IMG/VR virus record: IMGVR_UViG_3300045988_033906
Location: 1 to 31,280 of that record
Length of the DNA stretch: 31,280 bases
Direction: 5' to 3' (one strand)
Source of the DNA: a virus
Taxonomy: Duplodnaviria > Heunggongvirae > Uroviricota > Caudoviricetes
The notes under the pieces were generated by a model that searched no databases, was not told where the DNA came from, and was given only the letters and a program-made list of their open reading frames with translations. Shown here piece by piece: positions 7,139 through 26,249 of the stretch; position 1 is the stretch's first letter; each line of letters begins with the position of its first letter. The position numbers and the translations under genes are program-made.

Positions 7139-7176
7139 TTGCAAAACGTGCTGGATAGCAAACAAATTATTTGCTA

Positions 7177-7192
7177 CTGTATAAATATACAG
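7177..7192 (+). promoter_or_regulatory. LexA (SOS) box overlapping probable promoter of the 85-aa gene
   Basis: taCTGTATAAATATACAGtt matches the enterobacterial LexA consensus TACTGTATATATATACAGTA at 18 of 20 positions; contains TATAAAT (-10-like); RBS GGAG at 7202-7205 and ATG at 7214 follow. Confidence 0.65.
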
Positions 7193-7213
7193 TTATTGCA
7201 TGGAGAAGATAAG

Positions 7214-7471
7214 ATGCAGCAGTATCACTATCCACTGGAAGACGGATTTACCGAAAGGATTCACACGCCGGGAGGCGTCAGGTCACTGGTGGAGGGATCG
7301 CACTTGATGAAATTACTCCGGGATCTCGATAAGGATGGATTTAATGTCGATGGCCCACTTGCCGAACTGACTGCACTGATTAACTACGTCACCAGCTCAC
7401 AGATGTCTATGCAGGATCTGCAAACACATCTCGACTATTGTGCCGAACAATTACGAAAACAAACCACATAA
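7214..7471 (+). CDS. SOS-regulated small protein of unknown function (85 aa); candidate antirepressor-type moron
   Basis: ORF-track frame 7091-7471; internal ATG at 7214 has RBS GGAG 8 nt upstream and sits just downstream of the LexA box; MQQYHYPLEDGFTERIHTPGG...; no homolog recognised; opposite strand to the late operon. Confidence 0.6.
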   Translation: MQQYHYPLEDGFTERIHTPGGVRSLVEGSHLMKLLRDLDKDGFNVDGPLAELTALINYVTSSQMSMQDLQTHLDYCAEQLRKQTT

Positions 7472-21448: not shown

Positions 21449-21745
21449 TCACTCCTGTTCACTGGCCTCTTTGGCCATCTTCAAATACTGTTCAGGGCAA
21501 TGCGCCATAACGCGCTGAAACAGTTCCAGAGCCAGATTGCGTTGCCCCTCATTAAATGCCATTGCCATAGCGTCCATCGGCGAGATAGCGGAAAACACAC
21601 GGCCTTTCTCCAGTACCGACCAGACAACCCGACGCCCCTGTTCACAGCTCATGACAAAGCGAATGTCATCAATTTCACGCTGTGCCATGTCACGTTGCTT
21701 ACGGGCGTTTTCTTCTTTCAGTTGATCGTCTTCGTAATCTGTCAT
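21449..21745 (-). CDS. hypothetical small protein between portal and scaffold
   Basis: 98 aa; ATG overlaps portal stop (ATGA); charged helical protein; no function recognised. Confidence 0.5.
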   Translation of the reverse strand: MTDYEDDQLKEENARKQRDMAQREIDDIRFVMSCEQGRRVVWSVLEKGRVFSAISPMDAMAMAFNEGQRNLALELFQRVMAHCPEQYLKMAKEASEQE

Positions 21746-23421
21746 TGTGATTGCCCACCCTGACCACTAACTGCATTCGCCATAGCTGACAAAACACTCG
21801 GATCCGAAGTTTTAGCTTCGCTTAGCGTCTTGGCACCCTGTGCCGCCGCCATCCCCATCGCCATCATTTGTTGCTGCTGTTGCTGCTGTGCCCGTTGCTG
21901 GCGAGCCTGCTCAACCTGTTCCTGCGGAACAATGACGGTTGGAGACACTCCGGACATATCAGCGAATGCATCGATCGCCTGATCAACGTTGAGTTTGTCG
22001 AGAGCTTCTGGTTTCGCTTGCGCAAGTTGACCAATGAAGTTGACCGTGGATGCCAGACTGGACAGGCCGATAGACTTCTGCGCCTGAGCCATGACGGAAA
22101 TGTATTCGACCTTCAGGGGCATACCTTCCATCGCGTCAGGCGGTGGCGGCAGCATGTTTTTACGCACCATCATCGAGAAAGCGCGGTCAATGAGAGGATT
22201 AAGACATTCGTCGTTCAGACGCTCCAGAACCGGCCCCAACATCAGAAGTTTTTCTTCTTTCATTTCGATCACCGCTTCAACAGGCATCGAGCGGGTATTG
22301 ATGTTCTGCAACATCATGAACAGATCGACAAAGTAGGCGCTGTTAATGATTTGACGAGTGTCCTGAATGTCTGCCACCAAATCTGCTGTACTGGGGTTAA
22401 CCAGATAAGCAGGCCTGAAACCATCCTGACCAGTAATCTGATCGATATACGTGATGTCGCCAGGAAGAAGGGAGGCGCGCTGATTCTTGAGGGAAGTCGG
22501 AGCAACCATCGGCGGATTGGTGGCTTTATCAATCAACTGCGACTTGCGCTTCTGGAGAAGCTGCAATGCCTTAACAGGTCCAAGCGCCAGCATACCCGGG
22601 CATGATGATCCATAAACATCTTCGCCGTTAACTTCCCAGCGCGGAGCCATAATTGGAAACTCATCGAATCCGGACTCACGCAACAACTTGTCGTTATCGC
22701 CACCAACCTCGTAATAAACCGATTTGAATGGCTTGTTCTTGCTATCCAGCTTCGATGTATCGCGGTCAATGTTCGGGTAAACCGAATGCATCACTTCAAT
22801 CCACTTCTCGTAGGTGCCGCTTTCCCACATGCTTTTTACGGATTCGCTGACGTTATTTAGTCCGAATTCCTGAACAAGCTGACGAACAGTCATAGATAAC
22901 TTGCGAAAACAGGTGTCCACACTGCCACGAGGTGAGTTAGCCAGGTAGTAACTGCCTATCGGGAATGGCATTGTGCGAATGATGTCCTCGTCATCCTCCA
23001 GCACCGCCATTGCACCAGTGCTGTATGTGCCGAGGCTTCCGTATAACTGCGGCAGCGACTGATAGAGATTCGACTTATTGAACATATCGTTCATACGGTT
23101 CTGCACCGCCTCAAGCCACAACTTAACAGGGCCATAATCCATCATTTCAGGATCTGGCGTAGCCAGGCGAAACCACGGACGCGCGGGGCTTGTGATGCCT
23201 GACATCATGCCGCTGGCGAGAGTGCGCGCCGCCATAGTCCCGGTCGAATCAATAATGCGTGTATTGCGTCGATCGTTACGGTTGACCTCAGAAGTCAGAA
23301 AGCGGGAACCACGCGGGTTGATGTAATCACTCAACTCGCGCCAGTGCGGCTCGAACGACTGACGCTCGCTTTCAAGTTGTGCGAACTGTTTGTTCAATCG
23401 CTCTTTAGTTGTTTCCGCCAT
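21742..23421 (-). CDS. portal (head-tail connector) protein
   Basis: 559 aa; RBS GGAG; follows terminase in the late operon; size and position match podovirus portal proteins; C-terminus Gln/Ala-rich. Confidence 0.85.
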   Translation of the reverse strand: MAETTKERLNKQFAQLESERQSFEPHWRELSDYINPRGSRFLTSEVNRNDRRNTRIIDSTGTMAARTLASGMMSGITSPARPWFRLATPDPEMMDYGPVKLWLEAVQNRMNDMFNKSNLYQSLPQLYGSLGTYSTGAMAVLEDDEDIIRTMPFPIGSYYLANSPRGSVDTCFRKLSMTVRQLVQEFGLNNVSESVKSMWESGTYEKWIEVMHSVYPNIDRDTSKLDSKNKPFKSVYYEVGGDNDKLLRESGFDEFPIMAPRWEVNGEDVYGSSCPGMLALGPVKALQLLQKRKSQLIDKATNPPMVAPTSLKNQRASLLPGDITYIDQITGQDGFRPAYLVNPSTADLVADIQDTRQIINSAYFVDLFMMLQNINTRSMPVEAVIEMKEEKLLMLGPVLERLNDECLNPLIDRAFSMMVRKNMLPPPPDAMEGMPLKVEYISVMAQAQKSIGLSSLASTVNFIGQLAQAKPEALDKLNVDQAIDAFADMSGVSPTVIVPQEQVEQARQQRAQQQQQQQMMAMGMAAAQGAKTLSEAKTSDPSVLSAMANAVSGQGGQSQ

Positions 23422-23435
23422 TTCAATGACTCCGG

Positions 23436-23642
23436 TTACTGACCAAGCAGCGTTTTACCGCTGGTATTAGCGGTTGATGTGTCGCCCTGAGAACCGGTAA
23501 GCAGCGTAGAACTACGACCAGCAGCAGCGCGACGGCGACGAGTTTCTTCGTCGCGGGCATCAACAACGGCGGCATCCTGCTCCTGTGGTGCTGCCTGAAC
23601 TTCTGGTGTTGCAGGCACTGATGGTGAGCTACCCATGCACAT
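23436..23642 (-). CDS. hypothetical small acidic protein upstream of portal
   Basis: 68 aa; its RBS/start context (GGAGTCATTGATATG) is nearly identical to the portal start context (GGAGTCATTGAAATG) 220 nt downstream; low-complexity sequence, so weak. Confidence 0.35.
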   Translation of the reverse strand: MCMGSSPSVPATPEVQAAPQEQDAAVVDARDEETRRRRAAAGRSSTLLTGSQGDTSTANTSGKTLLGQ

Positions 23643-23732
23643 ATCAATGACTCCGTACGCAATTAAATTATTACCAATTTAACCACATATGATTTATTTA
23701 TCGTAGACAGTTGACATTTAACGCACAAATTA

Positions 23733-23747
23733 TTACCTTTCAGGTAA
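23733..23747. promoter_or_regulatory. inverted repeat TTACC-N5-GGTAA (copy B), with TTGACA 17 bp upstream
   Basis: ATTACCTTTCAGGTAAG at 23732-23748 matches copy A (ATTACCTTTCTGGTAAT) at 15 of 17 positions; TTGACA at 23711-23716; lies upstream of the tRNA on the same strand. Confidence 0.35.
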
Positions 23748-24069
23748 GCAAAGGGTTCATTCCGGTTATTAACCTGACTGGCTTGTCGTTAAATTGAACA
23801 GGTGGAGTGAACTTTTATTTTGAGCAGTACGGCGTATGGCACATGCGCCGATAGCGGTCTGGATACGTTTAAGGGGCATCCTCCCTTGCTCGGGCAAACG
23901 AACCAGGTAGCCGGAATGTGCAAGTCGAGCGGTTTTATTCCGCGCACGGGGATTCACCATCCCGGCGATTCGGTGTGACGCCTCGGAAGAGACGAGGGTA
24001 CAACGATGAGAGCATTTATGGAGCCGCGACAAAGTGTGGCGCCTTAACAGGCTAAGTGCTCTCAGCGTT

Positions 24070-24146
24070 GTGGCATTAGCTCAGCTGGACAGAGCAACCG
24101 CCTTCTAAGCGGTTGGTCGCAGGTTCGAATCCTGCATGCCACGCCA
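24070..24146 (+). tRNA. tRNA-Arg (anticodon UCU), phage-encoded
   Basis: Hand-folded cloverleaf: acceptor GTGGCAT/ATGCCAC (7 bp), D-stem GCTC/GAGC, anticodon stem ACCGC/GCGGT with loop CTTCTAA (anticodon TCT), T-stem GCAGG/CCTGC with loop TTCGAAT, discriminator G, encoded CCA. Confidence 0.85.
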
Positions 24147-24189
24147 GAATCACGCCTGAGGACCGTGATGCCAGAAGTTCCAGGTGCTT

Positions 24190-24233
24190 GGCGGTGATGG
24201 TTTCCCTTGAAGGACTATCACCGCCCTTTTTAC
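24190..24233 (+). terminator. rho-independent terminator downstream of tRNA
   Basis: GGCGGTGAT (24190-24198) pairs with ATCACCGCC (24217-24225), followed by CTTTTTAC. Confidence 0.6.
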
Positions 24234-24261
24234 AGCAGGACGCCATTGCGATGACTTCATG

Positions 24262-24277
24262 CTGTAAACCAGTACAG
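24262..24277 (+). promoter_or_regulatory. possible second LexA box (CTGT-N8-ACAG)
   Basis: CTGTAAACCAGTACAG; fits the CTGT-N8-ACAG core but the spacer is less AT-rich than consensus; about 70 bp upstream of the Gp49-like gene. Confidence 0.3.
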
Positions 24278-24309
24278 CCACGGAAGGCATAACTCATTGC
24301 TTCCAGTTC

Positions 24310-24333
24310 GCCCGGTTCGCCGGGCATTTTTTT
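24310..24333 (+). terminator. rho-independent terminator / attenuator abutting the RBS of the next gene
   Basis: GCCCGG TTCG CCGGGC then ATTTTTTTAA; the T-run runs directly into RBS AAGGTGAG of the 24345 gene. Confidence 0.55.
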
Positions 24334-24344
24334 AAGGTGAGATT

Positions 24345-24683
24345 ATGAACGACCAGCAAATCGAAAAAGAAATCGTTGAGAAAGGCAAAACCGCTCCGCG
24401 AGTTACGCCAGACCATATCGAAAGCATTATTCTTGCGGAAACGTACTTCACTGCTGCTGATGGAGCTATTGCAACTGGCGATGACTATCACGACAGTTTG
24501 GCTCTGCTGACATTTTGTGTATTGACTCTACAAAATGGCTTCACCGTCACCGGTGAAAGCGCCTGCGCCAGTCCTGAAAACTTTGATGCAGAAATTGGTC
24601 GGAAGATTGCCCGGCAAAATGCTGTAAACAAAATCTGGATGCTCGAAGGTTACTTGCTGAAGCAGAAGTTAAGCGAGCAATAA
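24345..24683 (+). CDS. phage Gp49/Sf6-gp66-like family protein (function unknown)
   Basis: 112 aa; RBS AAGGTGAG; conserved block LTFCVLTLQNGFTVTGESACASPENFDAEIGRKIARQNAVNKIWMLEGYLL recalled from this prophage protein family; opposite strand to the flanking terminase and portal genes. Confidence 0.55.
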   Translation: MNDQQIEKEIVEKGKTAPRVTPDHIESIILAETYFTAADGAIATGDDYHDSLALLTFCVLTLQNGFTVTGESACASPENFDAEIGRKIARQNAVNKIWMLEGYLLKQKLSEQ

Positions 24684-24687
24684 CACC

Positions 24688-24699
24688 GTGACATGTCAC
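24688..24699. repeat. 12-bp perfect palindrome GTGACATGTCAC, copy 2 of 3
   Basis: Lies 4 nt after the stop codon of the Gp49-like gene and just before a terminator hairpin, the same stop-palindrome-hairpin arrangement as copy 1. Confidence 0.5.
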
Positions 24700-24703
24700 A
24701 AAC

Positions 24704-24733
24704 AGCCAGCCGATGAGCTGGCTTTGTTTTATC
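24704..24733 (+). terminator. rho-independent terminator
   Basis: AGCCAGC (24704-24710) / GCTGGCT (24717-24723), loop CGATGA, then TTGTTTTAT. Confidence 0.55.
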
Positions 24734-24773
24734 CTCACCAGAGGATATCAGCAGCATTATCCCCTCCAGAGGA

Positions 24774-26249
24774 TTAAGCATAGGGATCGTAATCTGTAAT
24801 GGCCTTGCCTTGCTGGTTCTGCTGACCGGGAATTCGCAGACGCTTCGACACCGGGAAAGCAAACGTCAGCAGTAGCGCATCGCCTTTACCCGGCGAACGC
24901 CCAAGCCGCTCCTTGATATCTTCCTTCGGTTCGATAACGATTTTACCGTCCACGCGAACTTTGTACTCTGCCGCCGACAGTTCGTCCGCTGTTTCCTGGT
25001 CATCCAGCATGCCGCCCAGCCTCAGCCATGTCTTGCATGCATTGAACATCTCCCCACGCTTGTTAAGCATCTGCGGGTCAGTGGACGCACCACCGAACGG
25101 AACAAGTTGCCATGTGCGCCCCCAACCGTCACCGATTGACTTCAGCCCGGTACCGTAACCGAAGTCGATGAACACCGCGTCAGCCTGATACTGGTCTTCA
25201 AAGTCAGCGATACGCTTTGCCATAATCAGATCGTCAGTGGTCTTGTTGCCGGTCCACAGCACCTTACTGTGCAGCCCCTGCCGCAGGTATATCACCGCGT
25301 CATCAACACCGGAGTATGCAGGGTCAACGCCGATTATCACCGGAGCATGTGCCACCTGCGCAGCAGTTACCACCCGTTTCATTGCCTCGTCAGTAAGACC
25401 GGTAGGGATAAACTGCAATTCAGATGCATCAGGGAATATGCCGCGCACACGGATTTTAACGAAGTCGCTGTCTTCCCCGTAGTCATCAACCCATTTCTGC
25501 AACTGCTGTTTGTTGGTGCCTTCCACCGTCCGGCTGTCAATCTGCGCAGTTTTCCAGCGGTGTTTATATTTGCGGAAACATTCGCGGAAACGCCCGGTAT
25601 TACGCGTCGGGTTCCCGAACGCCACCCAGATGATTTCGGTGTCTTCGTCCGTCAGCGCACCCTCTGCTACCTCCCACACCAGATCGGCAATGTTGGATGC
25701 TTCGTCGAAAACCACGATGATGCGTTTGCGCTCGTTGTGTAGTCCGGCGAATGCCTCAGTGTTGTGCTCAGACCAGGGGATTGCGTCAGCTCGCCACCGC
25801 TTGTCGTGCCCATGGTCATTGCTGTACATCGCGGTAGCGGTACAGGTAAACCAGTCTTTCGTGATAGCAAGGTTCGACCACTTGATAATTTCCGGCCAGG
25901 TCTTCGTTCGTAGTTGGTTGTCGGTATTGGCGGTCACCACGACCTTACAATCCTCGCAAGTGGACATGCCCCAGTTGATCAGCATTGAGATGAATGCGGA
26001 TTTACCAATACCGTGACCCGAAGCACGTGCCAGCATAAGCGGCTGATAGCGCGTCTCTGGATTCTGCAGGTGATCACGTATCTCTCGGAACGCATCGGCC
26101 TGCCACTGACGTGGGCCGGTAGCATGTGCCAGTTCAGTCCCCTCTTCCCCCCACGGGAACGCATAGAGGGCATAACCAAGCGGATCGTGAGTAAACCCTG
26201 CAATATCCTCGATCAACTGCTCTTCAGGAGATAACGCTGCATCTGTCAC
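24774..26249 (-). CDS. terminase large subunit
   Basis: 491 aa; Walker A-like ARASGHGIGKS, Walker B-like IIVVFDEA, C-terminal nuclease-type region (IIGVDPAYSG...); GTG start overlapping TerS stop (GTGA). Confidence 0.9.
   Translation of the reverse strand: MTDAALSPEEQLIEDIAGFTHDPLGYALYAFPWGEEGTELAHATGPRQWQADAFREIRDHLQNPETRYQPLMLARASGHGIGKSAFISMLINWGMSTCEDCKVVVTANTDNQLRTKTWPEIIKWSNLAITKDWFTCTATAMYSNDHGHDKRWRADAIPWSEHNTEAFAGLHNERKRIIVVFDEASNIADLVWEVAEGALTDEDTEIIWVAFGNPTRNTGRFRECFRKYKHRWKTAQIDSRTVEGTNKQQLQKWVDDYGEDSDFVKIRVRGIFPDASELQFIPTGLTDEAMKRVVTAAQVAHAPVIIGVDPAYSGVDDAVIYLRQGLHSKVLWTGNKTTDDLIMAKRIADFEDQYQADAVFIDFGYGTGLKSIGDGWGRTWQLVPFGGASTDPQMLNKRGEMFNACKTWLRLGGMLDDQETADELSAAEYKVRVDGKIVIEPKEDIKERLGRSPGKGDALLLTFAFPVSKRLRIPGQQNQQGKAITDYDPYA

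Follow-up and report, generated by a model that had tools for sequence, protein, structure and literature searches.

In the window examined here, the 31,280 nucleotides (nt; positions 1 to 31,280) of IMG/VR virus record IMGVR_UViG_3300045988_033906, which is a Uetakevirus (epsilon15/phiV10-like) phage or prophage, a small Acb4-family gene begins directly behind an intrinsic terminator, T2, whose U-run passes without any spacer into the Shine-Dalgarno (SD) sequence of the gene. This hairpin/U-run/SD layout is a recurrent and conserved design, because the same junction recurs ahead of unrelated open reading frames (ORFs) in related phages, in an unrelated mobile element, and at ORFs that abut a second terminator, T1, located further upstream. 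On balance we favour the view that the gene, hereafter the cargo, would be expressed by read-through of T1 and T2, two leaky internal terminators, from an upstream candidate promoter, P_up. The slot that it occupies is an accessory hot spot in which, judged from predicted protein families, sponges for immune signals predominate. The three features on which the argument turns are as follows.

24310-24333, + strand: terminator T2 (terminator scan), with the hairpin GCCCGG-UUCG-CCGGGC at 24310-24325, one A, and U7 at 24327-24333.
24334-24341, + strand: Shine-Dalgarno AAGGTGAG, directly after the T2 U-run with zero spacer, the ATG standing at 24345.
24345-24683, + strand: Acb4-family gene (PF13876, Gp49/Sf6 gene 66; Pfam), a predicted cyclic-dinucleotide sponge of 112 amino acids (aa).

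The first-pass annotation, made from the letters alone, had described a GC hairpin and U-run butted against the ribosome-binding site of a Gp49-like gene of 112 aa, and both parts of this description proved accurate. T2 has a 6-bp all-GC stem with a folding energy (dG) of -11.2 kcal/mol and a hairpin probability of 0.99, and the - strand at this site is without a U-run. For comparison, relatives were gathered from annotated phages and from IMG/VR contigs carrying either the T2-SD junction or the conserved element that lies between T1 and T2 (individual loci are given L numbers); the cargo classes were counted in the 121 assessable loci of the first scan, the ACAG half of a LexA-like palindrome in 125 loci, and the conservation of the element in ~120. 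T2 is maintained in nearly all of ~120 related loci, with a U-run of 5-10 T throughout, and across 20 distinct stem variants 95% of cells are paired, compared with 20-57% in slid controls; the two inner pairs change together from GG:CC to AC:GT, which is compensatory, and in one variant the loop is inverted. Because it is retained in nearly all of these loci and its stem changes in pairs, the T2 hairpin is clearly not a product of chance, and its structure is under selection.

The SD, too, belongs to the conserved junction and not to the cargo, because in the relatives AAGGTGA is found behind the U-run even where the ORFs are unrelated. Three loci (L006, L107, L071) have a second ORF directly behind the U-run of T1, with its SD abutting that run. 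An unrelated integrase-bearing element (L132, positions 1040-1490) contains an Acb4-family gene of 137 aa behind a hairpin-ATTTTTTT-AAGGTGA junction; this GGGCATTTTTTTAAGGTGA junction is attached to a different stem, a DUF1281-like ORF precedes the gene, and the element is without the leader RNA and the hairpin HPa that precede T2 in the window. The junction therefore moves between different mobile elements. Such mobility could also be read in another way, namely that hairpin, U-run and SD are mainly a portable 5' untranslated region, involved in mRNA stabilisation, in S1-binding enhancement of translation and as a homology anchor for cassette exchange, with termination as a side effect. This would account for the GGGCATTTTTTTAAGGTGA junction ahead of the L132 gene and for its retention before many unrelated ORFs, and a near-identical Acb4 ORF found without the junction in a Lederbergvirus late operon makes ORF and junction separable; as the principal role we consider it quite improbable, since a GC hairpin followed by U7 is a canonical intrinsic terminator that will stop some polymerases, and since such a module supplies no promoter and would complement read-through from P_up, not replace it.

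The membership of the 112-aa protein in the Acb4 family is firm on profile evidence: it matches PF13876 (Phage_gp49_66) with E 1.8e-34 and 118.5 bits, against a cut-off of 27, over profile positions 1-82 of 82. PF13876 has been equated with Acb4 (bioRxiv 10.1101/2024.12.30.630793, 10.1101/2025.07.12.664507), the second of these studies defining Acb4 by PF13876 and Tad2 by PF11195, and the Acb4 proteins are small tetrameric phage proteins that sequester 3'3'-cyclic GMP-AMP (3'3'-cGAMP) and related signals of cyclic-oligonucleotide-based antiphage signalling systems (CBASS; bioRxiv 10.1101/2024.12.30.630793). The only solved-structure match of the protein is Acb4 itself (PDB 9E4W, E 1.2e-3 over 42 residues), to which its core motif F..V.G.S....ENF..EIGR aligns. 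When the 9E4W alignment was read against the residue numbers in the Acb4 paper (10.1101/2024.12.30.630793), three of the eight aligned ligand-contact residues proved identical (F48, F62 and I66) and five differed (E49, V56, Y57, N63 and T70). We infer sponge activity for the protein of the window.

An ORF 97.6% identical to the cargo is found at 2004-2342 of L130 (Lederbergvirus vB_EcoP-611R6), where it is 'gene 66' of the late operon, flanked by lysis genes and terminase. The flanks of this copy are wholly different from those in the window, and it has no hairpin. The exchange of gene 66 is, by this comparison, exactly ORF-sized and takes place across unrelated phage genera.

On its right-hand side the cargo is bounded by two further features.

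24688-24699, no strand assigned: perfect 12-bp palindrome GTGACATGTCAC, located after the stop codon of the cargo and before T3.
24704-24732, + strand: terminator T3 (terminator scan; annotated as rho-independent in phiV10), with the hairpin AGCCAGC-CGATGA-GCTGGCT at 24704-24723, followed by TTGTTTTAT.

The GTGACATGTCAC palindrome is retained beside unrelated cargo genes in phages of E. coli, Salmonella and Klebsiella, and the swappable segment ends there on its right-hand side. T3 closes the island in which the slot lies and faces the end of terL. The left edge is apparent from phage TL-2011b, which matches the window at 99% identity through 24333, the final T of the U-run, and shows no relation to it past that point. 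The cargo that occupies the slot falls into two classes. In class a, comprising 86 of the 121 assessable loci, SD and ATG lie within 26 nt of the U-run (<=26 nt), leaving no room for a promoter; the genes include ~47 Acb4 variants, 7 Tad2-like proteins (PF11195, E 1e-23 to 4e-26) and 1 Acb2/Tad1-hairpin protein (PF24729), so that known sponge families make up ~55 of the 86, and the remainder includes several small proteins of no assigned family together with an 8-codon 'empty' remnant. These 'empty' slots (L104, L112, L078, L115, L017, L058, L023) consist of T2, the SD, an 8-codon ORF (MKYEFDGF), the GTGACATGTCAC palindrome and T3.

In class b, which numbers ~30 loci, the cassette has its own sigma70-like promoter, made up of (G/A)TGAC(T/C), 17 nt that include TACC-N5-GG, and TAnnAT. 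The class b proteins are mostly of 200-290 aa and belong to phrog_4780 (L100, L103, L105, L110, L006 and others), with an N-terminal membrane segment, a coiled coil and a shared NP.GAF..SWC.FNWK motif. These transmembrane and coiled-coil proteins matched no Pfam or PADLOC family, low-level coiled-coil matches being the only ones, and phrog_4780 may be an exclusion or defence gene expressed by the prophage. A few loci are without T2: L007 and L066 have lost T2 and the tRNA and have kept the 45-nt element between T1 and T2, and in L126 the T2 stem is crippled. In L158 it is T1 and the conserved element that are lost, so that T2 alone separates a tRNA-like gene from the cargo, which is intact.

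The question of how the cargo is transcribed brings in the rest of the island, a + strand segment of 1.1 kb (23643-24773) that is antisense to the late genes and flanked by terL and, on the portal side, a 68-aa gene, with the cargo at its 3' end. The order is P_up, a leader of ~325 nt, tRNA-Arg(UCU), T1, the 45-nt element, hairpin HP2, T2, SD, cargo, GTGACATGTCAC palindrome and T3, and every recognisable island signal is on the + strand. The features upstream of T2 are the following.

23711-23746, + strand: candidate promoter P_up, with TTGACA at 23711-23716, a 17-nt spacer and TACCTT at 23734-23739, overlapped by the palindrome TACCTTTCAGGTA at 23734-23746.
23743-24069, + strand: structured non-coding leader of ~325 nt, conserved, between P_up and the tRNA.
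24070-24146, + strand: tRNA-Arg, anticodon UCU (ARAGORN; Rfam RF00005, 71.7 bits).
24190-24231, + strand: terminator T1 (terminator scan), with a 14-bp hairpin at 24190-24225, one C, and U5 at 24227-24231.
24229-24270, + strand: conserved element with hairpin HPa, arms TTTACAGCA (24229-24237) and TGCTGTAAA (24260-24268), loop GGACGCCATTGCGATGACTTCA.
24283-24305, + strand: small variable hairpin HP2, GGAAG...CTTCC, dG -4.4 kcal/mol.

From T1 to the ATG (24215-24345) there is no sigma70-like site above 4 bits, and the suggestion in the first-pass annotation that the gene is under some control other than a simple promoter is upheld to that extent. Its more specific form, classical attenuation, is not, as there is neither a competing fold nor a conserved leader peptide. 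An alternative-hairpin attenuator was rejected after folding with the 3' arm of T2 blocked, which gave at best -22.0 kcal/mol against -31.9 kcal/mol. A leader peptide from the ATG at 24251 was likewise rejected, the 13-codon ORF being without an SD and its frame and length not being retained in the Salmonella and Klebsiella types; the conserved HPa hairpin between T1 and T2 may, however, be a binding site for some factor.

Since there is no promoter between T1 and the ATG and the SD starts where the U-run ends, the cargo would have to be transcribed through T2, and polymerase must presumably pass T2 in the relatives as well, because dozens of differing intact ORFs have been kept behind it; such intact and diverse ORFs imply that the slot is in all probability expressed. 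Among the + strand sites of 23643-24350, P_up is the one that most resembles a sigma70 promoter (12.0 bits, at about the 95th percentile of shuffle maxima, scored with a simple matrix of hexamer frequencies), and its hexamers and 17-nt spacing are retained in the E. coli, Salmonella and Klebsiella types, with a variable spacer sequence. We infer from these features that P_up is active. T1 has a hairpin with a dG of -22 kcal/mol, whose stem differs among relatives with compensating changes; its U-tract is short (U5) and its discriminant score (d-score) of -17.7 is sub-threshold, which suggests weak termination. The d-score of T2, from the same discriminant, is +2.5 and marginal. Passive partial termination is favoured because T1 combines U5 with a sub-threshold score, and T2 a 6-bp stem with a marginal one.

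The favoured mechanism would then run as follows. An ORF that has no promoter of its own would be swapped into the slot behind the T2-U7-AAGGTGA junction; polymerase would start at P_up, the only recognisable + strand promoter, pass T2 and most likely T1 as well, and enter the cargo, which would thus be the distal gene of a leader RNA/tRNA-Arg/cargo unit. T1 and T2, as partial intrinsic terminators, would yield plentiful stable RNAs and a smaller, fixed share of cargo mRNA, from which the Acb4-type protein would be made to sequester CBASS cyclic-dinucleotide signals. The natural variants described above (L158; L007 and L066; L126; L006, L107 and L071) fit a single transcription unit with modular signals.

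Several points weigh against this reading. P_up taken alone is borderline, at 12.0 bits against a shuffle 95th percentile of 11.9, and its -10 hexamer, TACCTT, is poor. T2, with its GC stem, UUCG loop and U7, looks competent, and the estimates of terminator strength, which depend on the d-score formula, are approximate. A sponge would presumably be needed in quantity, which is awkward if polymerase has to read through two terminators. Finally, read-through does not account for the 45-nt element (TTTACAGCAGGACGCCATTGCGATGACTTCATGCTGTAAACC), which is near-invariant in ~120 loci across three host genera, with the sequence 3' of it diverging (HP2 varies in length and sequence by lineage and is deleted in L038).

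The apparent competence of T2 bears directly on a second explanation, active processive antitermination, in which a phage factor or an RNA (the leader and/or HPa, in the manner of nut or put) would protect polymerase that starts at P_up against termination at T1 and T2 and switch the cargo on at a particular stage of infection. Two intrinsic terminators within what seems to be one unit, a long covarying leader that belongs to no known family, and a near-invariant hairpin element directly 5' of T2 are what such a system might look like. The leader is conserved and structured: an RNAalifold consensus of 34 diverse relatives has 45 predicted pairs, 9 of them with compensatory changes, and its single-sequence fold has z = -4, with peripheral hairpins or insertions that are variable among relatives. 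It had zero matches in Rfam, even at E<=10, and may be an undescribed structured RNA. Pfam and PHROGs searches of the window ORFs, which represent part of a genome, returned no N, Q or other antiterminator family, and among the ORFs of 26917-31230 they found, by way of antiterminator or regulator genes, only an unnamed 'transcriptional regulator' (phrog_536). The boxA-like TGCTCT(T/C) beside the tRNA is a strand of a covarying helix and not a free boxA; L158 keeps T2 and an intact cargo without HPa, and L132 has the hairpin-U7-SD junction without leader or HPa. The first-pass annotation had raised antitermination, and its factor-dependent form is conceivable but unsupported; overall we judge active antitermination unlikely. 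A bolder version, in which the ~325-nt leader and/or the invariant T1-T2 hairpin licenses read-through in cis as an RNA-guided, put/nut-like platform, so that a plugged-in anti-defence ORF is expressed only from phage-programmed transcription, is a speculative proposal that we would call rather unlikely. If true, it would represent a new class of non-coding RNA controlling a plug-in counter-defence slot.

The element itself could be explained if it held a hidden promoter (24229-24270), whose short transcript would mostly end at T2, as a small RNA (sRNA) of ~70-100 nt, with the rest entering the cargo and T2 serving as an attenuator or sRNA terminator. The element is non-coding and far more conserved than its flanks; it starts with TTTACA, a 5/6 match to a -35 hexamer that is kept after a different terminator in L006; L007 and L066 retain it without tRNA and T2; and U7 terminators are typical of Hfq-binding sRNAs. 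Against these features, no acceptable -10 is present, TTTACA-17-TGACTT scoring 2.8 bits and ATGACT-16-TACAGC, which is not conserved in the Klebsiella type, 2.0 bits, while inspection by eye for sigmaE-, sigma54- and sigma28-like patterns in the conserved element found nothing convincing. L158 keeps T2 and cargo without the element, and the sRNA resemblances in Rfam were rejected as being at chance level (RyhB reached 18 bits, its gathering score being 55). A promoter of this kind is, in our estimate, a fairly improbable source of the cargo transcript. Across the leader, the T1-T2 segment and the tRNA-like replacement RNAs of the relatives, Rfam reported only tRNA, whether at gathering level or E<=10.

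These replacement RNAs are found in many relatives (L007, L103, L097, L119, L080, L024, L129), where non-canonical tRNA-like RNAs of 110-150 nt, with the tRNA-like ends GTGGTGAA...CCGGCCACCACA, stand in place of tRNA-Arg; they were not called by ARAGORN and had no Rfam match, and the one in E2348/69 is labelled a pseudogenic tRNA-Gly in RefSeq. Together with the leader, the 45-nt element and the TACC-N5-GGTA palindrome described below, they leave room for RNA- or factor-based control that may be more elaborate than leakage.

The conserved element also contains one half of the palindrome that had given rise to a proposal of SOS coupling.

24262-24277, no strand assigned: CTGT-N8-ACAG, CTGTAAACCAGTACAG, LexA-like, judged not to be a LexA site.

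The palindrome is exactly as first reported, some 70 bp upstream (68 nt 5' of the ATG at 24345), and if LexA bound to it the cargo would be coupled to the SOS response. The match to CTGT-N8-ACAG is perfect, CTGTAAACCAGTACAG is the third-best hit in the window to a LexA position weight matrix (PWM), and the same phage has a genuine SOS box at 7175. The PWM scoring that had been proposed as a check, with a matrix built from 26 E. coli SOS boxes and yielding approximate absolute values, gave CTGTAAACCAGTACAG 9.0-9.3 bits and a heterology index of ~14.7, below the weakest member of that set (polB, 12.8 bits and 12.0). Hits of equal or better score are expected ~1.7 times per shuffled window; the window has 3 copies of the bare CTGT-N8-ACAG pattern where 0.38 would be expected. 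By comparison with the 20-nt LexA consensus used (TACTGTATATATATACAGTA), whose spacer is AT-rich, that of CTGTAAACCAGTACAG contains GC (AAACCAGT), and the site overlaps no promoter, no sigma70-like site in 24215-24345 exceeding 4 bits. The CTGT half lies inside TGCTGTAAA, the 3' arm of HPa, and is held within the conserved element; the ACAG half is present in 69/125 loci, all of the E. coli-type lineage, and absent in 56/125 (Salmonella and Klebsiella types), where the replacements score -13.6 to +1.2 bits, although enterobacterial hosts share the LexA consensus. A LexA operator at 24262 was rejected because the site scores low, is of a quality expected by chance, overlaps no promoter and is not conserved; we give the SOS proposal almost no credence, and CTGT-N8-ACAG is most likely a lineage-specific coincidence atop a conserved element.

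The genuine SOS box of the window is at 7175-7194 (+ strand), where TACTGTATAAATATACAGTT is a near-perfect LexA box of 28 bits. It lies just 5' of the SD of an 85-aa ORF (7214-7471) with a match to phrog_450 and a weak one to an anti-repressor family, and the box is probably part of a LexA-controlled, antirepressor-type induction switch.

The palindrome that overlaps the -10 of P_up is one of five copies of TACC-N5-GGTA in the window (7124, 23734, 26861, 30317 and 30379), against 0.13 expected, all of them 5-110 nt 5' of gene starts. Three of the copies form part of a bigger repeat, ATTACC .. AACCACATA(T/A)G .. 41-53 nt .. ATTACC-N5-GGTAAT, and the palindrome also overlaps the -10 of the promoter-bearing cargo cassettes in relatives. 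A conserved phage regulator probably uses TACC-N5-GGTA as its operator.

The late genes to which the island is antisense are, on the - strand, terS (26246-26920), terL (24774-26249), the 68-aa gene (23436-23642) and portal (21742-23421). The nearest records to the window are vB_EcoP_ZX5, phiV10, the O157 typing phages and many E. coli prophages; the vB_EcoP_ZX5 paper contains nothing on transcripts of this region. The island is carried by 530 of 5426 complete E. coli genomes, or ~1 in 10, including that of enteropathogenic E. coli (EPEC) E2348/69, where the prophage shows an identical arrangement. The Pas sRNAs of EPEC are located in lambdoid prophages. An 83-aa ORF on the - strand (24076-24327), which the annotations of phiV10, TL-2011b and RefSeq prophages list as a hypothetical protein, is probably spurious and an annotation artefact: it is antisense over tRNA-Arg, starts inside T2 and has no SD, and it is retained in 80/120 relatives, but the RNA features hold this region constant.

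How the island relates to known systems can be considered signal by signal. The LexA operators of Enterobacteriaceae have the CTGT-N8-ACAG core in common with the palindrome of the window, which is poor in spacer and flanks, overlaps no promoter and is not conserved. The processive antitermination systems, lambda N/nut and HK022 put, resemble the island in having RNA hairpins upstream of terminators within a phage transcription unit; in the island, unlike these systems, no boxA or boxB match survives covariation analysis and no antiterminator protein was recognised among the window ORFs. Operons in which a partial terminator or a tRNA is part of the co-transcript, such as rpsU-dnaG-rpoD, the 3' external spacers of tRNA operons (3'ETS-leuZ) and the tRNA genes upstream of stx in Stx phages, are similar in placing a stable RNA gene and an intrinsic terminator ahead of a protein gene, with an expression ratio that would be set by leakage, whereas the island has tandem terminators with a conserved element between them and an SD that abuts the U-run. 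Phage morons, in the concept of Hendrix and Juhala, are extra genes between conserved late genes with their own promoter and terminator. The cargo likewise lies between conserved late genes, is present or replaced among close relatives and is followed by terminator T3; unlike a moron, it is promoterless, and the backbone provides the SD and presumably transcription. The class b cassettes of the relatives correspond fully to the moron definition.

With the founding member of its family, Acb4 of Bacillus phage SPO1 (PDB 9E4W), the protein of the window shares small size, phage origin, a full Pfam domain and the core motif, and in relatives the slot is taken by further sponges for nucleotides (Tad2-like, Acb2/Tad1-like); it differs in that only 3/8 ligand-contact residues are shared. 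An anti-signalling and anti-defence hot spot has recently been described in N4-like phages (bioRxiv 10.64898/2026.06.04.730250), and this too is a compact, variable locus between conserved genes that collects Acb4, Tad2 and other sponges. The locus of the window, in contrast, belongs to a temperate podovirus (Uetakevirus), lies antisense in the terL/portal interval, is tied to a tRNA and a structured RNA, and usually contains a single promoterless ORF behind a terminator.

What the island adds to these systems is a single, delimited Uetakevirus slot that exchanges sponges (Acb4, Tad2-like, Acb2/Tad1-like) and small uncharacterised proteins, and with it a handful of candidates for new anti-defence genes, among them phrog_4846 and phrog_18493. 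It also offers a regulatory layout to probe, in which a temperate phage would keep a counter-defence gene quiet or dosed by means of terminators and without a dedicated promoter, while a false SOS lead is removed and an unclassified structured RNA 5' of the tRNA is pointed out. The family of the gene has been described before; its locus and layout add a variation to the known phage accessory and anti-defence hot spots.

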